DNA of 64,000 nt, taken from Candidatus Moraniibacteriota bacterium (GTDB taxonomy: Bacteria; Patescibacteriota; Minisyncoccia; Moranbacterales; UBA1568). Of this stretch, positions 19,850-57,874 are shown one piece after another. The DNA lies in NCBI GenBank assembly GCA_030648835.1, contig JAUSGT010000002.1, positions 12,108 to 76,107 on the forward strand. Reading direction: 5' to 3'. Within the stretch, counting starts at the first letter, position 1. Each line of letters opens with the position of its first letter. The notes beneath the pieces are model-generated. The model had not been told where the DNA came from. It made no database searches and was given only the letters and a program-made list of their open reading frames with translations. The translations under genes were made by a program, and so were the position numbers.

Positions 19850-20866
19850 TTACAGTAATTTATCTTGATGGTCAGCCGGCATATGGATGTCGAGATGTTT
19901 GTAGCCTTCGGGAGTGACGACGCGACCGCGCGGAGTGCGCGCAAGAAATCCCAGTTGGATGAGATACGGTTCGTAGACGTCCTCGATGGTCTGAATCTCT
20001 TCTCCGGTTACGGCGGCGATGGCCTGGATGCCGGCTGGGCCACCTTTGAATTTATGAATAACCGTGGAGAGTATATGACGGTCAGTCGGCTCGAGACCGA
20101 GATGATCGATTTCGTAGAGCTCGAGGGCTTCTTTGGCGATTTCCCCGGTAATGGTGGGCCAGTTTTTCGTTTGGGCATAGTCACGCACGCGTTTCAAGAT
20201 GCGGTTGGCGACACGCGGTGTTTGCCGGCTGGATGCCGCAATTTTTTTGGCGCCTTTTTCGTCGAGACCGATATTCAGAATACCGGAAGAACGCTTTACG
20301 ATTCGCTCGATTTCTTCCGGCGTGTAAAATTCGAGGCGGTGGGTGGATCCGAAACGGTTACGGAGAGGATTGGAGAGCGAGCCGAGACGGGTAGTGGCGC
20401 CGATCAGGGTGAAGCGGGGGAGGTCGAGTTGAATAGTGCGGGCGGCCGGACCTTTGCCGATGATGATGTCGAGCTTGTAATCTTCCATGGCTGGGTAGAG
20501 GACTTCCTCAATCATTTTATTCAGGCGGTGGATTTCGTCGATGAACAAGACGTCGCCATCATCGAGATTGGTCAAGATGGAACCGAGATCGCCGACTTTT
20601 TCGATGGCCGGACCGGAAGTGATCTTGATACTGACGCCCATTTCTTTGGCGATGATGTGGGCGAGCGTCGTTTTCCCCAGGCCTGCCGGGCCGTAGAGGA
20701 GGATGTGATCAATAGACTCCTCGCGTTTTTTTGCCGCTTGAATAAAAATATCCAGATTGCGTTTGATTTTTTCTTGACCGACATACTCCGAAAAACGCTG
20801 CGGGCGGAGCGTATTATCGAAACTTTTTTCATCAATAACAGTTGGGTCGGAGGCAATTACCATCAT
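19850..20866 (-). CDS. ruvB: Holliday junction branch migration helicase RuvB
   Basis: Walker [19 protein letters not shown], an AAA+ domain, and the RuvB C-terminal winged helix. 338 aa. Confidence 0.95.
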
Positions 20867-20928
20867 AAGTATAAAGAGGCTTAATGAAGGGGAAAAGAGG
20901 GCTATTTACCCTTGTATTGTACCACGTG

Positions 20929-20957
20929 TTGACAAAAGAATAAAGCTATGCTAATAT
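20929..20957 (+). promoter_or_regulatory. Near-consensus sigma70-type promoter (TTGACA-17-TAATAT) with no downstream plus-strand gene
   Basis: TTGACA at 20929-20934, an exact 17-nt spacer, TAATAT at 20952-20957. Confidence 0.55.
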
Positions 20958-21354
20958 GCCATTTCGCTTAACAAGACATTTTGAAGCTTTTCTAAAGACT
21001 GTTTCATCTGTAGACAATTGGGGATCACTATCTTTTGTCCTCAATCGCGGAACTGTTGTCCAGATTTGGGTAGGGTGGTTTCGACTGCGCTATTCCTCGA
21101 CACTTTTCCTTTTCTCGAACTCCTATGCTCGAGAGTTGTCTACAGGTTAAACAGCCTTTGCCTTGTGAAATATCTGACAAATTAATCTTGAATGTGAACA
21201 TATCTATTACCAAACGGAGTGAGTGTAACGAAAGTTTACTTTCGTTTCCGAACGCAGTGCCGGTAAAATCGGTTCTAATACCCGTTATTATTGAAAGAAC
21301 ATCAAAGAAGATTCATATTTGGCAGATTTTTCACGAGGTTTACTTCAGCGGAAT

Positions 21355-21388
21355 AAAAAAGAGACCCTTCGTGGGTCTTTTTTGTTTG
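21355..21388. terminator. Bidirectional intrinsic terminator
   Basis: AAAAAA-GAGACCC-ttcgt-GGGTCT-TTTTTGTTT. An A-run lies upstream and a T-run downstream, so it can terminate the minus-strand pilB-fusion transcript and any plus-strand transcript from the 20929 promoter. Confidence 0.7.
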
Positions 21389-21395
21389 GGATGTT

Positions 21396-24300
21396 TTACA
21401 AATCAGTGACGCGCTTCACTTCGTCGAGCGTGGTTAACCCTTCAAGGACACAGAGGATGCCGTCTTGGAGGAGGGTGATCATTCCAAGCGCGACCGCTTT
21501 CTCCTCGATTTCACTGACGAGCGCGCCATGAGCGATGAGCTCGGAGAGTTCTTTGCCGATGAGGAGCGTTTCGGCGATGACCATCTGCCCCGTGAAACCG
21601 GTACCACTACAGGTCGTACAGCCTTTGCCATGAGAGAGTCGCATTTTTTTGGTAAGCGCATCTTTGTCTGGTAATGATGCTAAGACCTTTTTAATAATTT
21701 CCTTTTCGGCTTCAGTTGGAGGGAGAGATTCTTTGCACTTGGCACAGATTTTTCGGACCAAACGCTGAGCCATGAAAAGATTGGCGGTGTTGGCGAGGTC
21801 GTCGTTCGTCACTCCCATCGCGGTCAGGCGGGAGACGACACCCGCAGCCGAATTGGTATGGAGGGTGGAGAGGACGAGGTGCCCGGTACTGGCGGCCTGG
21901 ACGGCAATTTGCGCGGTTTTTTCGTCACGGATTTCACCGATCATCAGAATATCGGGATTCTGGCGCATAAGCGAACGGAGCGCGGTAGCGAACGTATAGC
22001 CCTCGCTCTCTTTGGTTTGGGTTTGGAGGATGCCTTGGATCTGGTATTCGATCGGATCTTCAACCGTGATTATTTTTACTTCGGGCTTATTCAGTTTGGC
22101 GAGAATACTGTAGAGGGTGGAAGTTTTTCCGGAGCCGGTCGGGCCGGTGTTCAAGATTATCCCGTGTGGTTTGCCGATAGCCGCGTAAATATTTTCCAGA
22201 TTTTGTTTGCGGATGTGGAGCGTGTCGAGGTCGAGTTTGACGACGGACTGATTGAGAAGGCGCATGACAATTGTTTCACCGAAACCGCCGAGGATGATGG
22301 AAAGACGGATATCAACGGTATCAGGCTTTTCCTCCCCGGCCTTTTCGATGGTAAGAGAAAAACGACCATCAATGGTACCGGAACGTTCACCCGATTTGAG
22401 CCCGGCCGCCAGTTTGATTTCCGCGATGAGGGTCGGGTATTCGGTAATGGGAATGCGCGCGGCCGTTTGGAGAATGCCATCGATGCGATAGCGTACGTCG
22501 ACCATGTCTCCTTGAGGTTCGATATGGATATCTCCGGCGCGCAAGAGAAGCGCCCCGGCAAAAATAGCAGGCAGGCGTAATTGGGAGTCGATCCCGGCGA
22601 TATAGCCGGCAAATTTTTTGAGTGAAGTGGTTTCTTTTTTTGTTTTTGTGAAAAGGATTTCGGTAATGTGGGTGGAGCGGGAAAGTTCGCTCGGCATCAA
22701 CTCGGCATAGATATTTTGGAGAGATTCTGTCTGATCGGCGACGCGCCAGACTTCATCGAGCGTCGTGATGCCTTCGAGCGCTTTGAGAATTCCATCTTGG
22801 GTCATCGTGATCATCCCGTTTTCCAGCGCGGCGCGGAGAATTTCTTGCTCGTTCCCCATATTGTTGACGATCTTTATGATTTCTTCCGTCATGGTGAGCA
22901 CTTCAAATATGCCGATGCGGCCATGATAACCGGTGAAATTGCATTTTGCGCACCCGACCGCCTTGAAGAGAGAATCCACTTTTTTGGGGAGCGAAATTTT
23001 GGCTTTGGGAGAAATGATGGTGATGAGTTTCAGGATAGAATCAATGGTTTCCCGAGCCGGCGCGTAGGAAGCTTTACAGTCTGGGCAGAGGATGCGCACC
23101 AAGCGCTGTCCGATGAGAGCGTTCAGCGAGGCGGTGATGAGATCCGGCTTGACGCCGAGCTCCATAAAGCGCGGGATGGCGGCAGCGGCGCTGTTGGTGT
23201 GGAGGGTGGAAAATACGAGGTGTCCGGTAAGCGCGGCATTGACGGTGATGTCGGCGGTTTCCTCGTCGCGAATTTCCCCAACAAGAATCATATCGGGATC
23301 CTGGCGGACGATAGCGCGGAGCGCGGTGGCGAAGGTATAATCCTTGTTTTTGGAGATTTCCGTCTGCACGATGCCGGGCAGGGTGTATTCGATCGGGTCT
23401 TCGACAGTGATGACTTTTGTATCCGGCTGGTTGACGTGGTTCAAGAGTGTGTAGAGTGTCGTGGTTTTTCCGGAGCCGGTTGGACCGGTATTCAAGATGA
23501 GACCGTTCGGTTTGGAAATTTGTTTCAAGACTTCTTCATAAGCCAGCCCACGCAGTCCAAGTTTTTCGACATCGACGATGACATCGTCACCGGAAAGGAG
23601 GCGCATATTGATGTTTTCGCCATATTTTCCCGGGATGCTCGAGACGCGGACATCGATGCGCTTCTGGTCGAGATCGACGAAGAAGTGCCCATCTTGAGCT
23701 TCTTTGCGGATATTGAGGCGCATCTTGGCGATCATTTTGATACGTGAGAGGAGGAGGTGGTAGAGCTCTTGGGGGAGATCGCCGACTTCTTGGAGCACAC
23801 CGTCGATGCGGTAGCGCAGGCGGATGGCAGATTCTTCCGGCTCGAGATGGATGTCGCTGGCTCGGAGTTTTCTGGCGCCGGCCAAAATGATTTCCATCGA
23901 ACGCGAGGTGTTGAGCTTCTGACCTTCCTTGAGTGAGATAAGCTCCCCAAAATCTTTTTCGAATTTTTCCAAGTCGCTATCGCCGAGAGAGACACGCACG
24001 AGATCGAGAGCATCGAGAAAGGTGCGCTTGGAGTAATATTCCCAGGCGTGTTTGATGGACTGTTTCGAAATGAGGTACAGCTCTATCTGCCAGCCGTGTT
24101 TCTCGGCGAGAGCTTGGATGTATTCCAGCGCCCCCTTGTTCTTTGGATCGAGAAGAGCGAAACGGGTGAGCGTACTTTTTTTGCTGAAGAGGATGACGTT
24201 CCATTTTTTGGATTCAGCTTCCGGGAGGAGCATGATATCCTCGGCGTTTAAAGGGAAAGCGTGAAGATCGATGTATGAGAAGCCGCTTTTGGCGGCCAAG

Positions 24301-24410
24301 AGCGAGGCCTGTTCTTCCATCGAAATCTCGCGCATTTTTTTCAAAATCGCTTGTGTTTTTTCTTCTTTTTGAGAAGAGGGAGTTGTATTTTGGTGAACCA
24401 CCTTTACCAT
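21396..24410 (-). CDS. Tandem-duplicated type II/IV secretion ATPase (GspE_N + two complete PilB/GspE N2-ATPase cores in one polypeptide)
   Basis: First core: Walker A LILNTGPTGSGKTTTL, an Asp box, His box TLHTNSAA, and a tetra-Cys CPDC...CAKC. Second core: Walker A IILNTGPTGSGKTSTL, VLSTLHTNSAAG, and CAKC...CTTC. An N-terminal T2SSE_N-like domain precedes them. The start is moved to MVKVVHQ (24410). Confidence 0.85.
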   Translation of the reverse strand: MVKVVHQNTTPSSQKEEKTQAILKKMREISMEEQASLLAAKSGFSYIDLHAFPLNAEDIMLLPEAESKKWNVILFSKKSTLTRFALLDPKNKGALEYIQALAEKHGWQIELYLISKQSIKHAWEYYSKRTFLDALDLVRVSLGDSDLEKFEKDFGELISLKEGQKLNTSRSMEIILAGARKLRASDIHLEPEESAIRLRYRIDGVLQEVGDLPQELYHLLLSRIKMIAKMRLNIRKEAQDGHFFVDLDQKRIDVRVSSIPGKYGENINMRLLSGDDVIVDVEKLGLRGLAYEEVLKQISKPNGLILNTGPTGSGKTTTLYTLLNHVNQPDTKVITVEDPIEYTLPGIVQTEISKNKDYTFATALRAIVRQDPDMILVGEIRDEETADITVNAALTGHLVFSTLHTNSAAAAIPRFMELGVKPDLITASLNALIGQRLVRILCPDCKASYAPARETIDSILKLITIISPKAKISLPKKVDSLFKAVGCAKCNFTGYHGRIGIFEVLTMTEEIIKIVNNMGNEQEILRAALENGMITMTQDGILKALEGITTLDEVWRVADQTESLQNIYAELMPSELSRSTHITEILFTKTKKETTSLKKFAGYIAGIDSQLRLPAIFAGALLLRAGDIHIEPQGDMVDVRYRIDGILQTAARIPITEYPTLIAEIKLAAGLKSGERSGTIDGRFSLTIEKAGEEKPDTVDIRLSIILGGFGETIVMRLLNQSVVKLDLDTLHIRKQNLENIYAAIGKPHGIILNTGPTGSGKTSTLYSILAKLNKPEVKIITVEDPIEYQIQGILQTQTKESEGYTFATALRSLMRQNPDILMIGEIRDEKTAQIAVQAASTGHLVLSTLHTNSAAGVVSRLTAMGVTNDDLANTANLFMAQRLVRKICAKCKESLPPTEAEKEIIKKVLASLPDKDALTKKMRLSHGKGCTTCSGTGFTGQMVIAETLLIGKELSELIAHGALVSEIEEKAVALGMITLLQDGILCVLEGLTTLDEVKRVTDL

Positions 24411-24524
24411 ACCATTTGTTTTTTTGTTTGTGCCCCCATTGTACCTCAAAATGAGGTGCTTCGGCAAAAGAAAAACCCAGCTCAAGTAACTGGGTGAACA
24501 GAAACATTGAAAAGGAGGAACTCT

Positions 24525-56240: not shown

Positions 56241-57662
56241 TCAGGTAATCCTGAAATTCTTGAACTGCCAGGGATCGCTTTCATCAAGGTCTTCGGGCAG
56301 GGGATGATTGCGGTTTTCGAGCGGTGTCCAGTCGCTGTACTCGCCCATGACTTTTCCCAAGTAAGGTTTGGCAATGCGGAGGATTTCGTCGAAAGGCATC
56401 TCATCCGGTTCGATGACGCCACGGCGCGGATTCTTGATGGCCCAGATGACACCGGAGAGAACCCCGGCTGTTACCTGGAGCGCCGTCGCGCTGTTGTGGG
56501 GAGTGAGTCGGCGGGCCTCTTCTACGGAAAGGCGCGAGCCGTACCAATAGGCGCCTTTTTCGTGCCCCATGAGGAGGACGCCAAGCTCATCGATGCCGGA
56601 AACAATCTCATCGGTGACGACGCGTTTGTTCTTTTGGAGTTCGAAATTTTTTCCGATAAATTCATGAACGGAAAGCACCGTATCATCGCTCGGATGATAC
56701 GCGTAGTGGACAGTGGGGCGATAGGTGGGGGTTTTGGTATCACCGATGGTGAAATAATCAGCCAAGGAAATCGATTCACCGTGAGTAATGAGAAAAGCGG
56801 TTTGTGAACCGGCGAGCGGTGTCCAACTGCGGACCTCTGTAGCTGCTCCCGGACGTCCCAAAAATATGGCGGCTGTACATCCGAAATCAAAGCGCTTGCC
56901 ATCCGGGGGAAAATGTTTCTCGTGGCTGCCCCACCCCAGTTCGGCCGGTTGTGATCCTTCACCGACAAAACCATCGACTGACCAGGTGTTGACGAATTCG
57001 CCGAGATGTTTACGCGGGTTGCAGATCTGCGTGTCGCGTTCGGCGATGTGAATGGTTTTGATATGGAGGTCGCACGCGAGTTTGGCCCACTGCGCGCGAT
57101 CTTGCGGGACATTCGTGAATTGCCCGGTATCTTTGGCGATATGGATGAGCGCTTTTTTTACGAAATGTGAAACGAGGCCGGGGTTGGCGCCGTGAGTGAG
57201 GACAGCTGTCGGCGCTGTGGTACCATATTTTTTGCGCAGAACCAGAGCGTCTTCACGCAGAGCATAGTTGGTGCGTTTGGCTTCGGGGATGGATGTATCC
57301 GTATAGCCGCCCTCCCATGGTTCGATGACGGTATCGAGGTAGAGAACATCGTTTTCCGCGCAGAAAGAAATCAGATCGACCGTCGAGACATCGACGGAAA
57401 GATTGAGAAGAAAGTCTCCGGGCTTGAGATGTGATTTGAGAATTTCTTGATAATTGTTTTGTTTGAGCGGTTTGATGATGAAGGTCACTCCGTATTCCTC
57501 GGCAATTTCTTTGCCGCGCTTATCGGCGGTGACGATAGTGATGCACTCTTTCGGAATATCGATATGGCGGAGAATAAGTGGCAAAACTCCTTGGCCGATG
57601 GAGCCAAAGCCGATGATGAGAATATTGTGGGGGAAGGAGATTTTTTTTGGAGGTTGGGGCAT
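56241..57662 (-). CDS. Homospermidine synthase-like / saccharopine dehydrogenase-family NAD-binding enzyme
   Basis: N-terminal Rossmann NILIIGFGSIGQGVLPLILRHI. About 470 aa. Overall similarity to the bacterial homospermidine synthase family is judged from memory. Confidence 0.5.
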   Translation of the reverse strand: MPQPPKKISFPHNILIIGFGSIGQGVLPLILRHIDIPKECITIVTADKRGKEIAEEYGVTFIIKPLKQNNYQEILKSHLKPGDFLLNLSVDVSTVDLISFCAENDVLYLDTVIEPWEGGYTDTSIPEAKRTNYALREDALVLRKKYGTTAPTAVLTHGANPGLVSHFVKKALIHIAKDTGQFTNVPQDRAQWAKLACDLHIKTIHIAERDTQICNPRKHLGEFVNTWSVDGFVGEGSQPAELGWGSHEKHFPPDGKRFDFGCTAAIFLGRPGAATEVRSWTPLAGSQTAFLITHGESISLADYFTIGDTKTPTYRPTVHYAYHPSDDTVLSVHEFIGKNFELQKNKRVVTDEIVSGIDELGVLLMGHEKGAYWYGSRLSVEEARRLTPHNSATALQVTAGVLSGVIWAIKNPRRGVIEPDEMPFDEILRIAKPYLGKVMGEYSDWTPLENRNHPLPEDLDESDPWQFKNFRIT

Positions 57663-57874
57663 TATCTGTAGACAAGTATACTGATGAAAAAAAGGAAAAA
57701 CGAAAAAATAATCAACACATGTAGAGAATTATAATATTTTTAGACTTCAGTGTAAACCCCTTTTGGTTATGTCCATATACATATGGCAGTGAAATAAGGA
57801 CGCTATTTGTCTTTTGATTTTTTTGTGCTACGGTGTGAACATCACAAACAGTTCTTTTCAGGGAGGGCTCTGCC

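Follow-up and report, generated by a model that had tools for sequence, protein, structure and literature searches.

The genomic window analyzed here is a 64,000-nucleotide stretch of DNA from Candidatus Moranbacteria (CPR/Patescibacteria), and the 529-bp gap that it contains between ruvB (19850-20866, minus strand) and the gene of a PilB/GspE-like ATPase (21396-24485, minus strand) is the site of a gene for a structured non-coding RNA on the plus strand, a conclusion in which we have very high confidence. The RNA gene is divergent from ruvB and convergent with the ATPase gene. The RuvB protein of the window shares 90% identity with RuvB of a Candidatus Moraniibacteriota metagenome-assembled genome (MAG), and its 30-odd best relatives belong without exception to the Moranbacteria/Parcubacteria. 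The convergent neighbor encodes a protein of 1029 aa with two tandem T2SSE (PilB/GspE-type) ATPase domains; in loci L003-L009 and L075, an apparently single-domain version of ~600 aa is found in the same place.

Transcription of the RNA would start from the rightward TTGACA-17-TAATAT promoter recognized by the initial annotation, which is indeed present on the plus strand (20929-20957, 10 of 12 consensus matches) and which is, more fully, TTGACA-17-TGcTAATAT, with a TG-extended -10 element. Sites resembling promoters are, in general, no more frequent in this region than in shuffled sequences (6 versus 3.8 +/- 2.0), and the credibility of this site derives from its conservation: approximately 44 of the 48 homologs for which enough upstream sequence is available have TTGACA without mismatch, the 17-nt spacer and TGnTAnnnT. 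The predicted start (~20964-20966, as judged from the -10 element) is followed by a variable 5' leader (20964-20995), which is poorly conserved in both length and sequence (the distance from the -10 element to the conserved core ranges from 14 to 110 nt among homologs) and which, in some homologs, includes an extra hairpin.

On the opposite strand, the sequence TGGTACAAT (20916-20924, minus strand) reads as the extended -10 element of a divergent promoter, likely that of ruvB, which would stand back-to-back with the promoter of the RNA. An opposite-strand TGnTAnnnT exactly 4 nt from the -35 hexamer of the RNA promoter is observed in 26 of 47 distinct homolog upstream regions, and at this position most of the remaining regions carry a -10-like hexamer that lacks the TG. 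With a spacing of only 4 nt, the RNA polymerase footprints at the two promoters must overlap, which probably couples the two transcripts or trades one off against the other, and the arrangement lends itself to testing how promoters are coupled in a reduced genome.

At the other end of the interval, the strong bidirectional terminator previously proposed at 21355-21388 is also real. It comprises a core hairpin (21362-21378, AGACCC-UUCGU-GGGUCU) flanked by an A-run and a T-run within an intrinsic terminator (21357-21386, plus strand) that is common to the RNA gene and the convergent ATPase gene, and its extended fold (21357-21383) is predicted on both strands (-14.9 kcal/mol on the plus strand and -10.0 kcal/mol on the minus strand). 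This terminator is homologous to one located directly 3' of the RNA in L001, L006 and L128. An intrinsic terminator lies within ~50 nt of the closing stem of the RNA (P1) in 33 of 50 homologs, as counted with a crude detector, and the distance between P1 and the terminator, 20-50 nt among relatives, is 20-45 nt in L001, L006, L128, L002 and L011.

The extent of ~420 nt originally given for the candidate is correct for the interval that promoter and terminator bracket, but not for the conserved unit, which has a core of 164 nt (20996-21159) and from which 178 bp of the bracketed interval must be discounted as an insertion. The conserved transcript unit, with its ends predicted, is ~20964-21159 plus a short trailer. 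The insertion (21161-21338) is bounded by 22-nt terminal inverted repeats (21161-21182 and 21317-21338) that are 86% complementary, and the entire element folds into a long hairpin; the corresponding site is empty in the five closest relatives examined (L001, L006, L128, L002 and L011). No second copy of the element is found within the 64-kb window, and no clear target-site duplication was identified at its ends. The element looks like a MITE, with the mobility that this implies, although the label is provisional because the element is known from one copy in the window together with one internal stretch that resembles part of another locus. This stretch (21202-21266, 65 nt) is 80% identical to L002:280-343, where it lies upstream of the GspE-like gene of another Moranbacteria genome, and has neither an Rfam match nor a conserved open reading frame (ORF); the shared segment contains the hairpin ACGAAAGU...ACUUUCGU. 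Insertion of the 178-bp inverted-repeat element between the RNA core and the terminator has lengthened the tail in the genome of the window, where the primary transcript is predicted to be ~420 nt, against ~230 nt without the element.

A query spanning 20867-21395 was compared by blastn and nhmmer with 80 RuvB-anchored loci, 33 of which contain the interval upstream of ruvB in divergent orientation, with ~20916-21156 as the conserved part. A covariance model (R1) built from 28 copies gives a full match in 33 of the RuvB-anchored loci, with one copy per locus. Part matches were obtained in L023, where the contig end cuts the RNA, and in L034, where a run of N breaks it, together with a score of 40 bits in L038; full and part matches taken together include all loci with RuvB identity of at least 68%. 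With the filters off, a 32-bit match appears at the same position in L041. Metagenome contigs were scanned with a pattern drawn only from the RNA (CTATCTTTT..CCTCG..TGYCTRC) and making no use of ruvB. True model matches were found in 18 of the 80 loci returned, and in all 18 copies ruvB is divergent and the ATPase gene convergent, as far as the contig reaches. The conservation in related genomes that had been suggested as a check is apparent in 52 homologs, from genomes and metagenomes, with a fixed gene context wherever the contig is long enough to show it. The RNA is absent from genomes in which ruvB does not adjoin this ATPase gene (L033, L035, L036 and others), and the synteny of ruvB, RNA and ATPase gene may stem from gene order being generally conserved within the clade rather than from a functional link to ruvB. 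A phage or mobile origin of the RNA was also considered and rejected: 21 pattern matches were found in viral contigs, and none of these is a model match.

The conserved core folds into a four-way junction, as defined by covariance models, RNAalifold and pair counts, and scores 165.5 bits (R1) and 162.1 bits (R2) on the plus strand. The junction is closed by the 17-bp stem P1 (20999-21017/21136-21154), supported by covariation, within which lie the P2 hairpin (21018-21044), an arm formed by P3a (21049-21052/21106-21109), P3b (21057-21060/21099-21102) and P4 (21068-21096), and the P5 hairpin (21113-21134), with P2, P4 and P5 likewise supported by covariation and P3a and P3b by per-sequence duplex predictions that covary. 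The P2 loop carries an invariant 9-nt sequence (CUAUCUUUU, within 21026-21036), and a conserved bulge, CAGAUUU, is seen in the alignment between P3b and P4 (21061-21067); this bulge is 7-9 nt long across homologs and its AGA is invariant. CCUCGA after P4 and the P5 loop (YCYUA) complete the set of conserved unpaired elements. The signature that we propose for the family consists of the inner part of P1 (UGYAGRCAA/UUGYCURCA), the P2 loop sequence, CCUCGA after P4 and the P5 hairpin, and the window core contains all of these motifs in addition to the R1 and R2 matches.

From a plain MAFFT alignment, RNAalifold returns the long closing stem and two hairpins, with compensatory changes in 22 of 36 pairs. 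When P5 is added to the structure scored on this structure-blind alignment, 94.8% of the cells in 44 pairs are paired, compared with ~44% when the pairing is slid, and 29 of the 44 pairs show double changes, a result matched in 0 of 500 shuffles. An alignment of 47 sequences fitted to R2, and consequently leaning towards the model, gives 54 pairs with 92.5% of cells paired (43-49% when slid) and double changes at 39 pairs. P3a and P3b are the weakest of the helices (73% and 80% paired, respectively, in the fitted alignment and 63% and 70% in the MAFFT alignment), and the changes within them include GGGAAC/GUUCCU to GGCGUC/GACGCU, GGUUGC/GCAACU, GGUAGC/GCUACU and GGGAGC/GCUCUC in P3a, and UGUC/GACA to UGCC/GGCA or UAUC/GAUA in P3b. 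Single-sequence energy minimization also recovers the P1-P5 helices (-58 kcal/mol, z = -4.7 on the plus strand). Among homologs, P4 is capped by either a UNCG or a GNRA tetraloop, and an extra tetraloop-capped stem is inserted in P3 in several lineages; both features typify RNAs that rely on their three-dimensional fold to function.

The GA dinucleotides near the P3b/P4 bulge had suggested a K-turn. Covariation led to the rejection of this motif: the GA of CCUCGA changes as part of Watson-Crick pairs, with GACA/UGUC replaced by GGCA/UGCC or GAUA/UAUC.

Large inserts, of ~50 to 130 nt, are also seen at a variable site in P3 in some homologs (L028:3503-3794, L017:3396-3658 and L014:3647-3866). 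In L028, 18-nt inverted repeats (CCCGCACUAAUUUUGCAC and GUGCAAAAUUAGUGCGGG) border the insert, which may represent a long additional stem or else a further inverted-repeat element at a permissive site. The regions of the gene that can be disrupted are revealed by the inserts in the 3' trailer (window) and possibly in the variable stem (L028).

The strand of the RNA is fixed by its G·U pairs, which are near-invariant in P2 (44 of 46 sequences) and P4 (44 of 46 sequences), occur as near-invariant tandem pairs in the P3a-P3b-P4 arm and as further U·G pairs elsewhere, and which would become A·C on the opposite strand; the R1 score is correspondingly 30.6 bits on the minus strand, versus 165.5 bits on the plus strand. 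These observations bear on whether the conserved structure might be cis-regulatory, either as the 5' leader of ruvB on the minus strand or as a riboswitch-type attenuator on the plus strand. The RNA always adjoins ruvB, and the single-sequence fold of the minus strand (-50 kcal/mol, z = -4.2) is better than that of shuffled sequences. However, the conserved ruvB -10 element (20916-20924) lies between ruvB and the RNA gene, so that the ruvB leader starts downstream of the RNA gene and the RNA is therefore not part of it. A plus-strand attenuator fares no better, as the 3' end of the convergent gene lies beyond the terminator, leaving nothing to regulate, while a 17-bp P1 separated from the terminator by 20-50 variable nt is unlike a switching helix. 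We regard a cis-regulatory role, in either form, as barely conceivable.

The protein-coding content of the interval leads to a similar judgment. The ORFs that had been dismissed as not credible do exist, namely one of 64 aa (20956-21150), which starts inside the -10 box, and one of 94 aa (21125-21409), which crosses both the insertion and the terminator and is unmatched in relatives. Their dismissal stands, but the argument then made from the lack of a ribosome-binding site does not, as just 6 of the 49 long ORFs of the window carry a Shine-Dalgarno-like motif at most 20 nt from the start, which suggests that the host may use Shine-Dalgarno-independent initiation. ORF leaders in the window are A/U- or pyrimidine-rich. 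The 64-aa and 94-aa ORFs are instead rejected because of frame-breaking indels, the lack of 3-nt periodicity and the strong covariation. In support of a small protein gene, one plus-strand frame is free of stop codons across the core in many homologs, with runs of ~54 codons, and the window itself has the 64-aa and 55-aa ORFs; few stop codons are, however, expected in such pyrimidine-rich sequence in any case. The open frame differs even between close relatives (+1 in the window versus +2 in L001, with a 1-nt indel between them), column variability has no 3-nt periodicity (p = 0.62-0.97), indels of +1, +11-18, +50 and >100 nt in P3 break every frame, and the start of the 64-aa ORF falls in the -10 box. 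A protein product is accordingly about as improbable as the cis-regulatory role.

The window and 14 relatives were scanned against Rfam 15 at the gathering score, at which no family matches the RNA, and the scan was extended to E<=10 for 20700-21600 and for two relatives (L009 and L026). At this relaxed threshold, the weak matches are scattered over ncr1015, ctRNA_p42d, Phe_leader and snoRNAs, with no family common between sequences, and the families singled out for checking (RNaseP_bact_a/b, 6S, tmRNA and SRP) give no match. The exclusion by eye of type A RNase P RNA and of tmRNA is hereby upheld, Rfam giving no match and ARAGORN finding no tmRNA (an RNA whose two ends form a tRNA-like domain and which contains a tag reading frame) but just two tRNAs in the window, both elsewhere. 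The suggested alternative, a very divergent housekeeping RNA, is not supported, given the lack of matches at E<=10 and an incompatible topology.

There are features that make such a reading attractive: the RNA occurs once in each genome sampled from the clade, its promoter is strong and near-consensus, and a long stem closes its 5' and 3' ends, as in stable RNAs. The candidates to be considered would be an RNase P, 6S, SRP or tmRNA so divergent that it escapes the standard models. In RNase P RNA, CR-I/CR-V-type motifs (GAAAGUCC and ACAGAA..GGCUUA) form the long-range P4 helix, located between the P3 hairpin and the 3' strand of P2. No blocks resembling them are conserved in our alignment, there is no P4-type long-range pairing, and just 2-4 variable nt separate P5 from the 3' strand of P1. 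The 164-nt core is also small for this role, being less than half the size of RNase P RNA. The RNase P RNAs of CPR bacteria are known to be divergent (Lui et al. 2021, PMC8172020), and likenesses to the present RNA include a layout in which the closing stem precedes a hairpin and additional helices, tetraloop-capped variable helices, and an origin in CPR genomes where standard models underperform. These divergent forms, however, retain the RNase P helices and are still recovered with RF00010 at lowered thresholds (PMC8172020), whereas the present RNA gives no signal with RF00010 or RF00011, has no P4 pseudoknot and lacks CR-I/CR-V sequences.

The present RNA resembles 6S RNA (RF00013) in that both are ~200 nt long and single-copy with an abundant-type promoter and a long closing stem, and it would likewise act in trans and be a candidate decoy for a nucleic acid or protein. 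RF00013 gives no match at E<=10, however, and in place of a central bubble between two long irregular helices, with a terminal stem made by pairing of the 5' and 3' halves, the RNA has independently folding interior helices, with P3 nested within P1 together with the local hairpins P2, P4 and P5. Helix 8 of SRP RNA has a GNRA tetraloop and conserved symmetric and asymmetric internal loops. The sole long hairpin of the present RNA, P4, is unlike it in that UNCG and GNRA caps are interchangeable and tandem G·U pairs are present, and no SRP model matches at E<=10. The covariation-supported local hairpins exclude both the rod of 6S RNA with its central bubble and the single hairpin of SRP RNA. Given this topology, the absence of matches at E<=10 in the window and two relatives, and the failure to reach the gathering score in 14 loci, we consider a divergent form of one of these universal RNAs highly improbable.

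The findings favor, instead, an independent gene, present in single copy, that encodes a structured small RNA of an undescribed family restricted to Moranbacteria and close CPR relatives and acting in trans through its fold, an assignment that we make with good confidence. The uncharacterised small RNA between its own promoter and terminator envisaged by the initial annotation is in this sense supported, by 52 homologs, by covariation at 39 of 54 pairs, by a strand assignment from G·U pairs, by the conserved promoter and by terminators in relatives. The gene is organized as a near-consensus sigma-70-type promoter followed by a variable leader of ~30 nt, the 164-nt four-way-junction core and the terminator, and its product is proposed to act in trans as a folded particle. 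Within this particle, the P2 loop and the P3/P4 bulge would dock through an AUCU:AGAU contact, building a compact core; both sides of this candidate contact are nearly invariant, and its fourth pair is A·C in ~40% of sequences.

Several orphan bacterial RNAs provide a general precedent for such a gene. The raiA motif, ROOL, GOLLD and OLE RNAs are encoded by stand-alone genes with their own promoter and terminator and have multi-stem junctions supported by covariation. They also share with the present RNA a lineage-restricted distribution and invariant nucleotides in loops or bulges. Nevertheless, none of them matches it in sequence or structure in Rfam 15, OLE, GOLLD and ROOL are larger, and the present RNA differs from raiA-type orphans in its occurrence in CPR bacteria and its strictly fixed position adjoining ruvB.

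As to the mode of action, binding of a protein (as an RNP) or of a small ligand is favored because of the long P1, the modular stems, the tandem G·U pairs and the invariant loop and bulge, and, provided that the RNA is real, we put the chance of this at about even. A base-pairing mode is, on the same proviso, considerably less likely, and its specific form as a trans-acting antisense RNA, in which the exposed P5 loop CUCCUAUG or the P2 loop CUAUCUUUU would pair with purine-rich mRNA, appears somewhat less likely still. Both loops are single-stranded, that of P2 being invariant and that of P5 pyrimidine-rich and exposed, CUCCU is complementary to the Shine-Dalgarno core, and no cis target accompanies the RNA, whose gene carries a promoter and a terminator of its own. 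In these respects (its own promoter, a Rho-independent terminator and exposed pyrimidine-rich loops) it resembles RsaE/RoxS, the seed-pairing small RNAs of Gram-positive bacteria. Against this, a four-way junction, modular tetraloop-capped stems and conserved tandem G·U pairs are atypical of seed-pairing RNAs, the conserved, tertiary-type architecture being much more elaborate than that of RsaE/RoxS; conservation of the P5 loop is just moderate, no conserved target complementarity was found, and the host is largely devoid of Shine-Dalgarno sequences.

We consider it improbable, although less so than a divergent form of a universal housekeeping RNA, that the RNA is the subunit or decoy of a lineage-specific housekeeping particle tied to its fixed neighbors, or represents a new, CPR-confined class of ribozyme or RNP. 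This view has some standing because of the clade-wide, single-copy occurrence of the RNA, its near-consensus promoter, which overlaps that of ruvB at a fixed distance of 4 nt, and its elaborate conserved fold. In the particle version, the four-way junction would act as a nucleic-acid mimic engaging the RuvAB branch-migration machinery or the DNA-uptake/pilus apparatus, by analogy with 6S RNA, which mimics an open promoter.

A considerable part of bacterial diversity belongs to the CPR/Patescibacteria, which have genomes of ~1 Mb with few known regulators, and, to our knowledge, almost nothing is known of their non-coding RNAs; a search of full-text literature found no description of an RNA such as this one in CPR bacteria. 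The RNA would be among the few lineage-specific structured RNAs defined in the CPR, and it offers metatranscriptomics, structure probing and the identification of binding partners a concrete object of study, while its covariance model can improve the annotation of Moranbacteria genomes.

A single striking complementarity to the RNA was found within the window. The 10-mer UUGUCUACAG occupies positions -13 to -4 relative to the ATG of a homospermidine synthase gene (56241-57662, minus strand), the match being an exact copy of the 3'-strand 10-mer of P1, TTGTCTACAG, located before the start of this gene (57666-57675, minus strand). The corresponding mRNA was rejected as a target, and the match attributed to chance, as the 10-mer is absent at orthologs of 88%, 79%, 73% and 68% identity; its pairing partner would, moreover, be a strand buried in P1. 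The homospermidine synthase is identical to a protein assigned to Candidatus Moranbacteria. Its Moranbacteria orthologs extend down to ~68% identity only, and its nearest named homologs, at 62-66%, are mostly from Proteobacteria with one from Acidobacteriota; there are hints in these sequence relationships that the gene may have been acquired horizontally.
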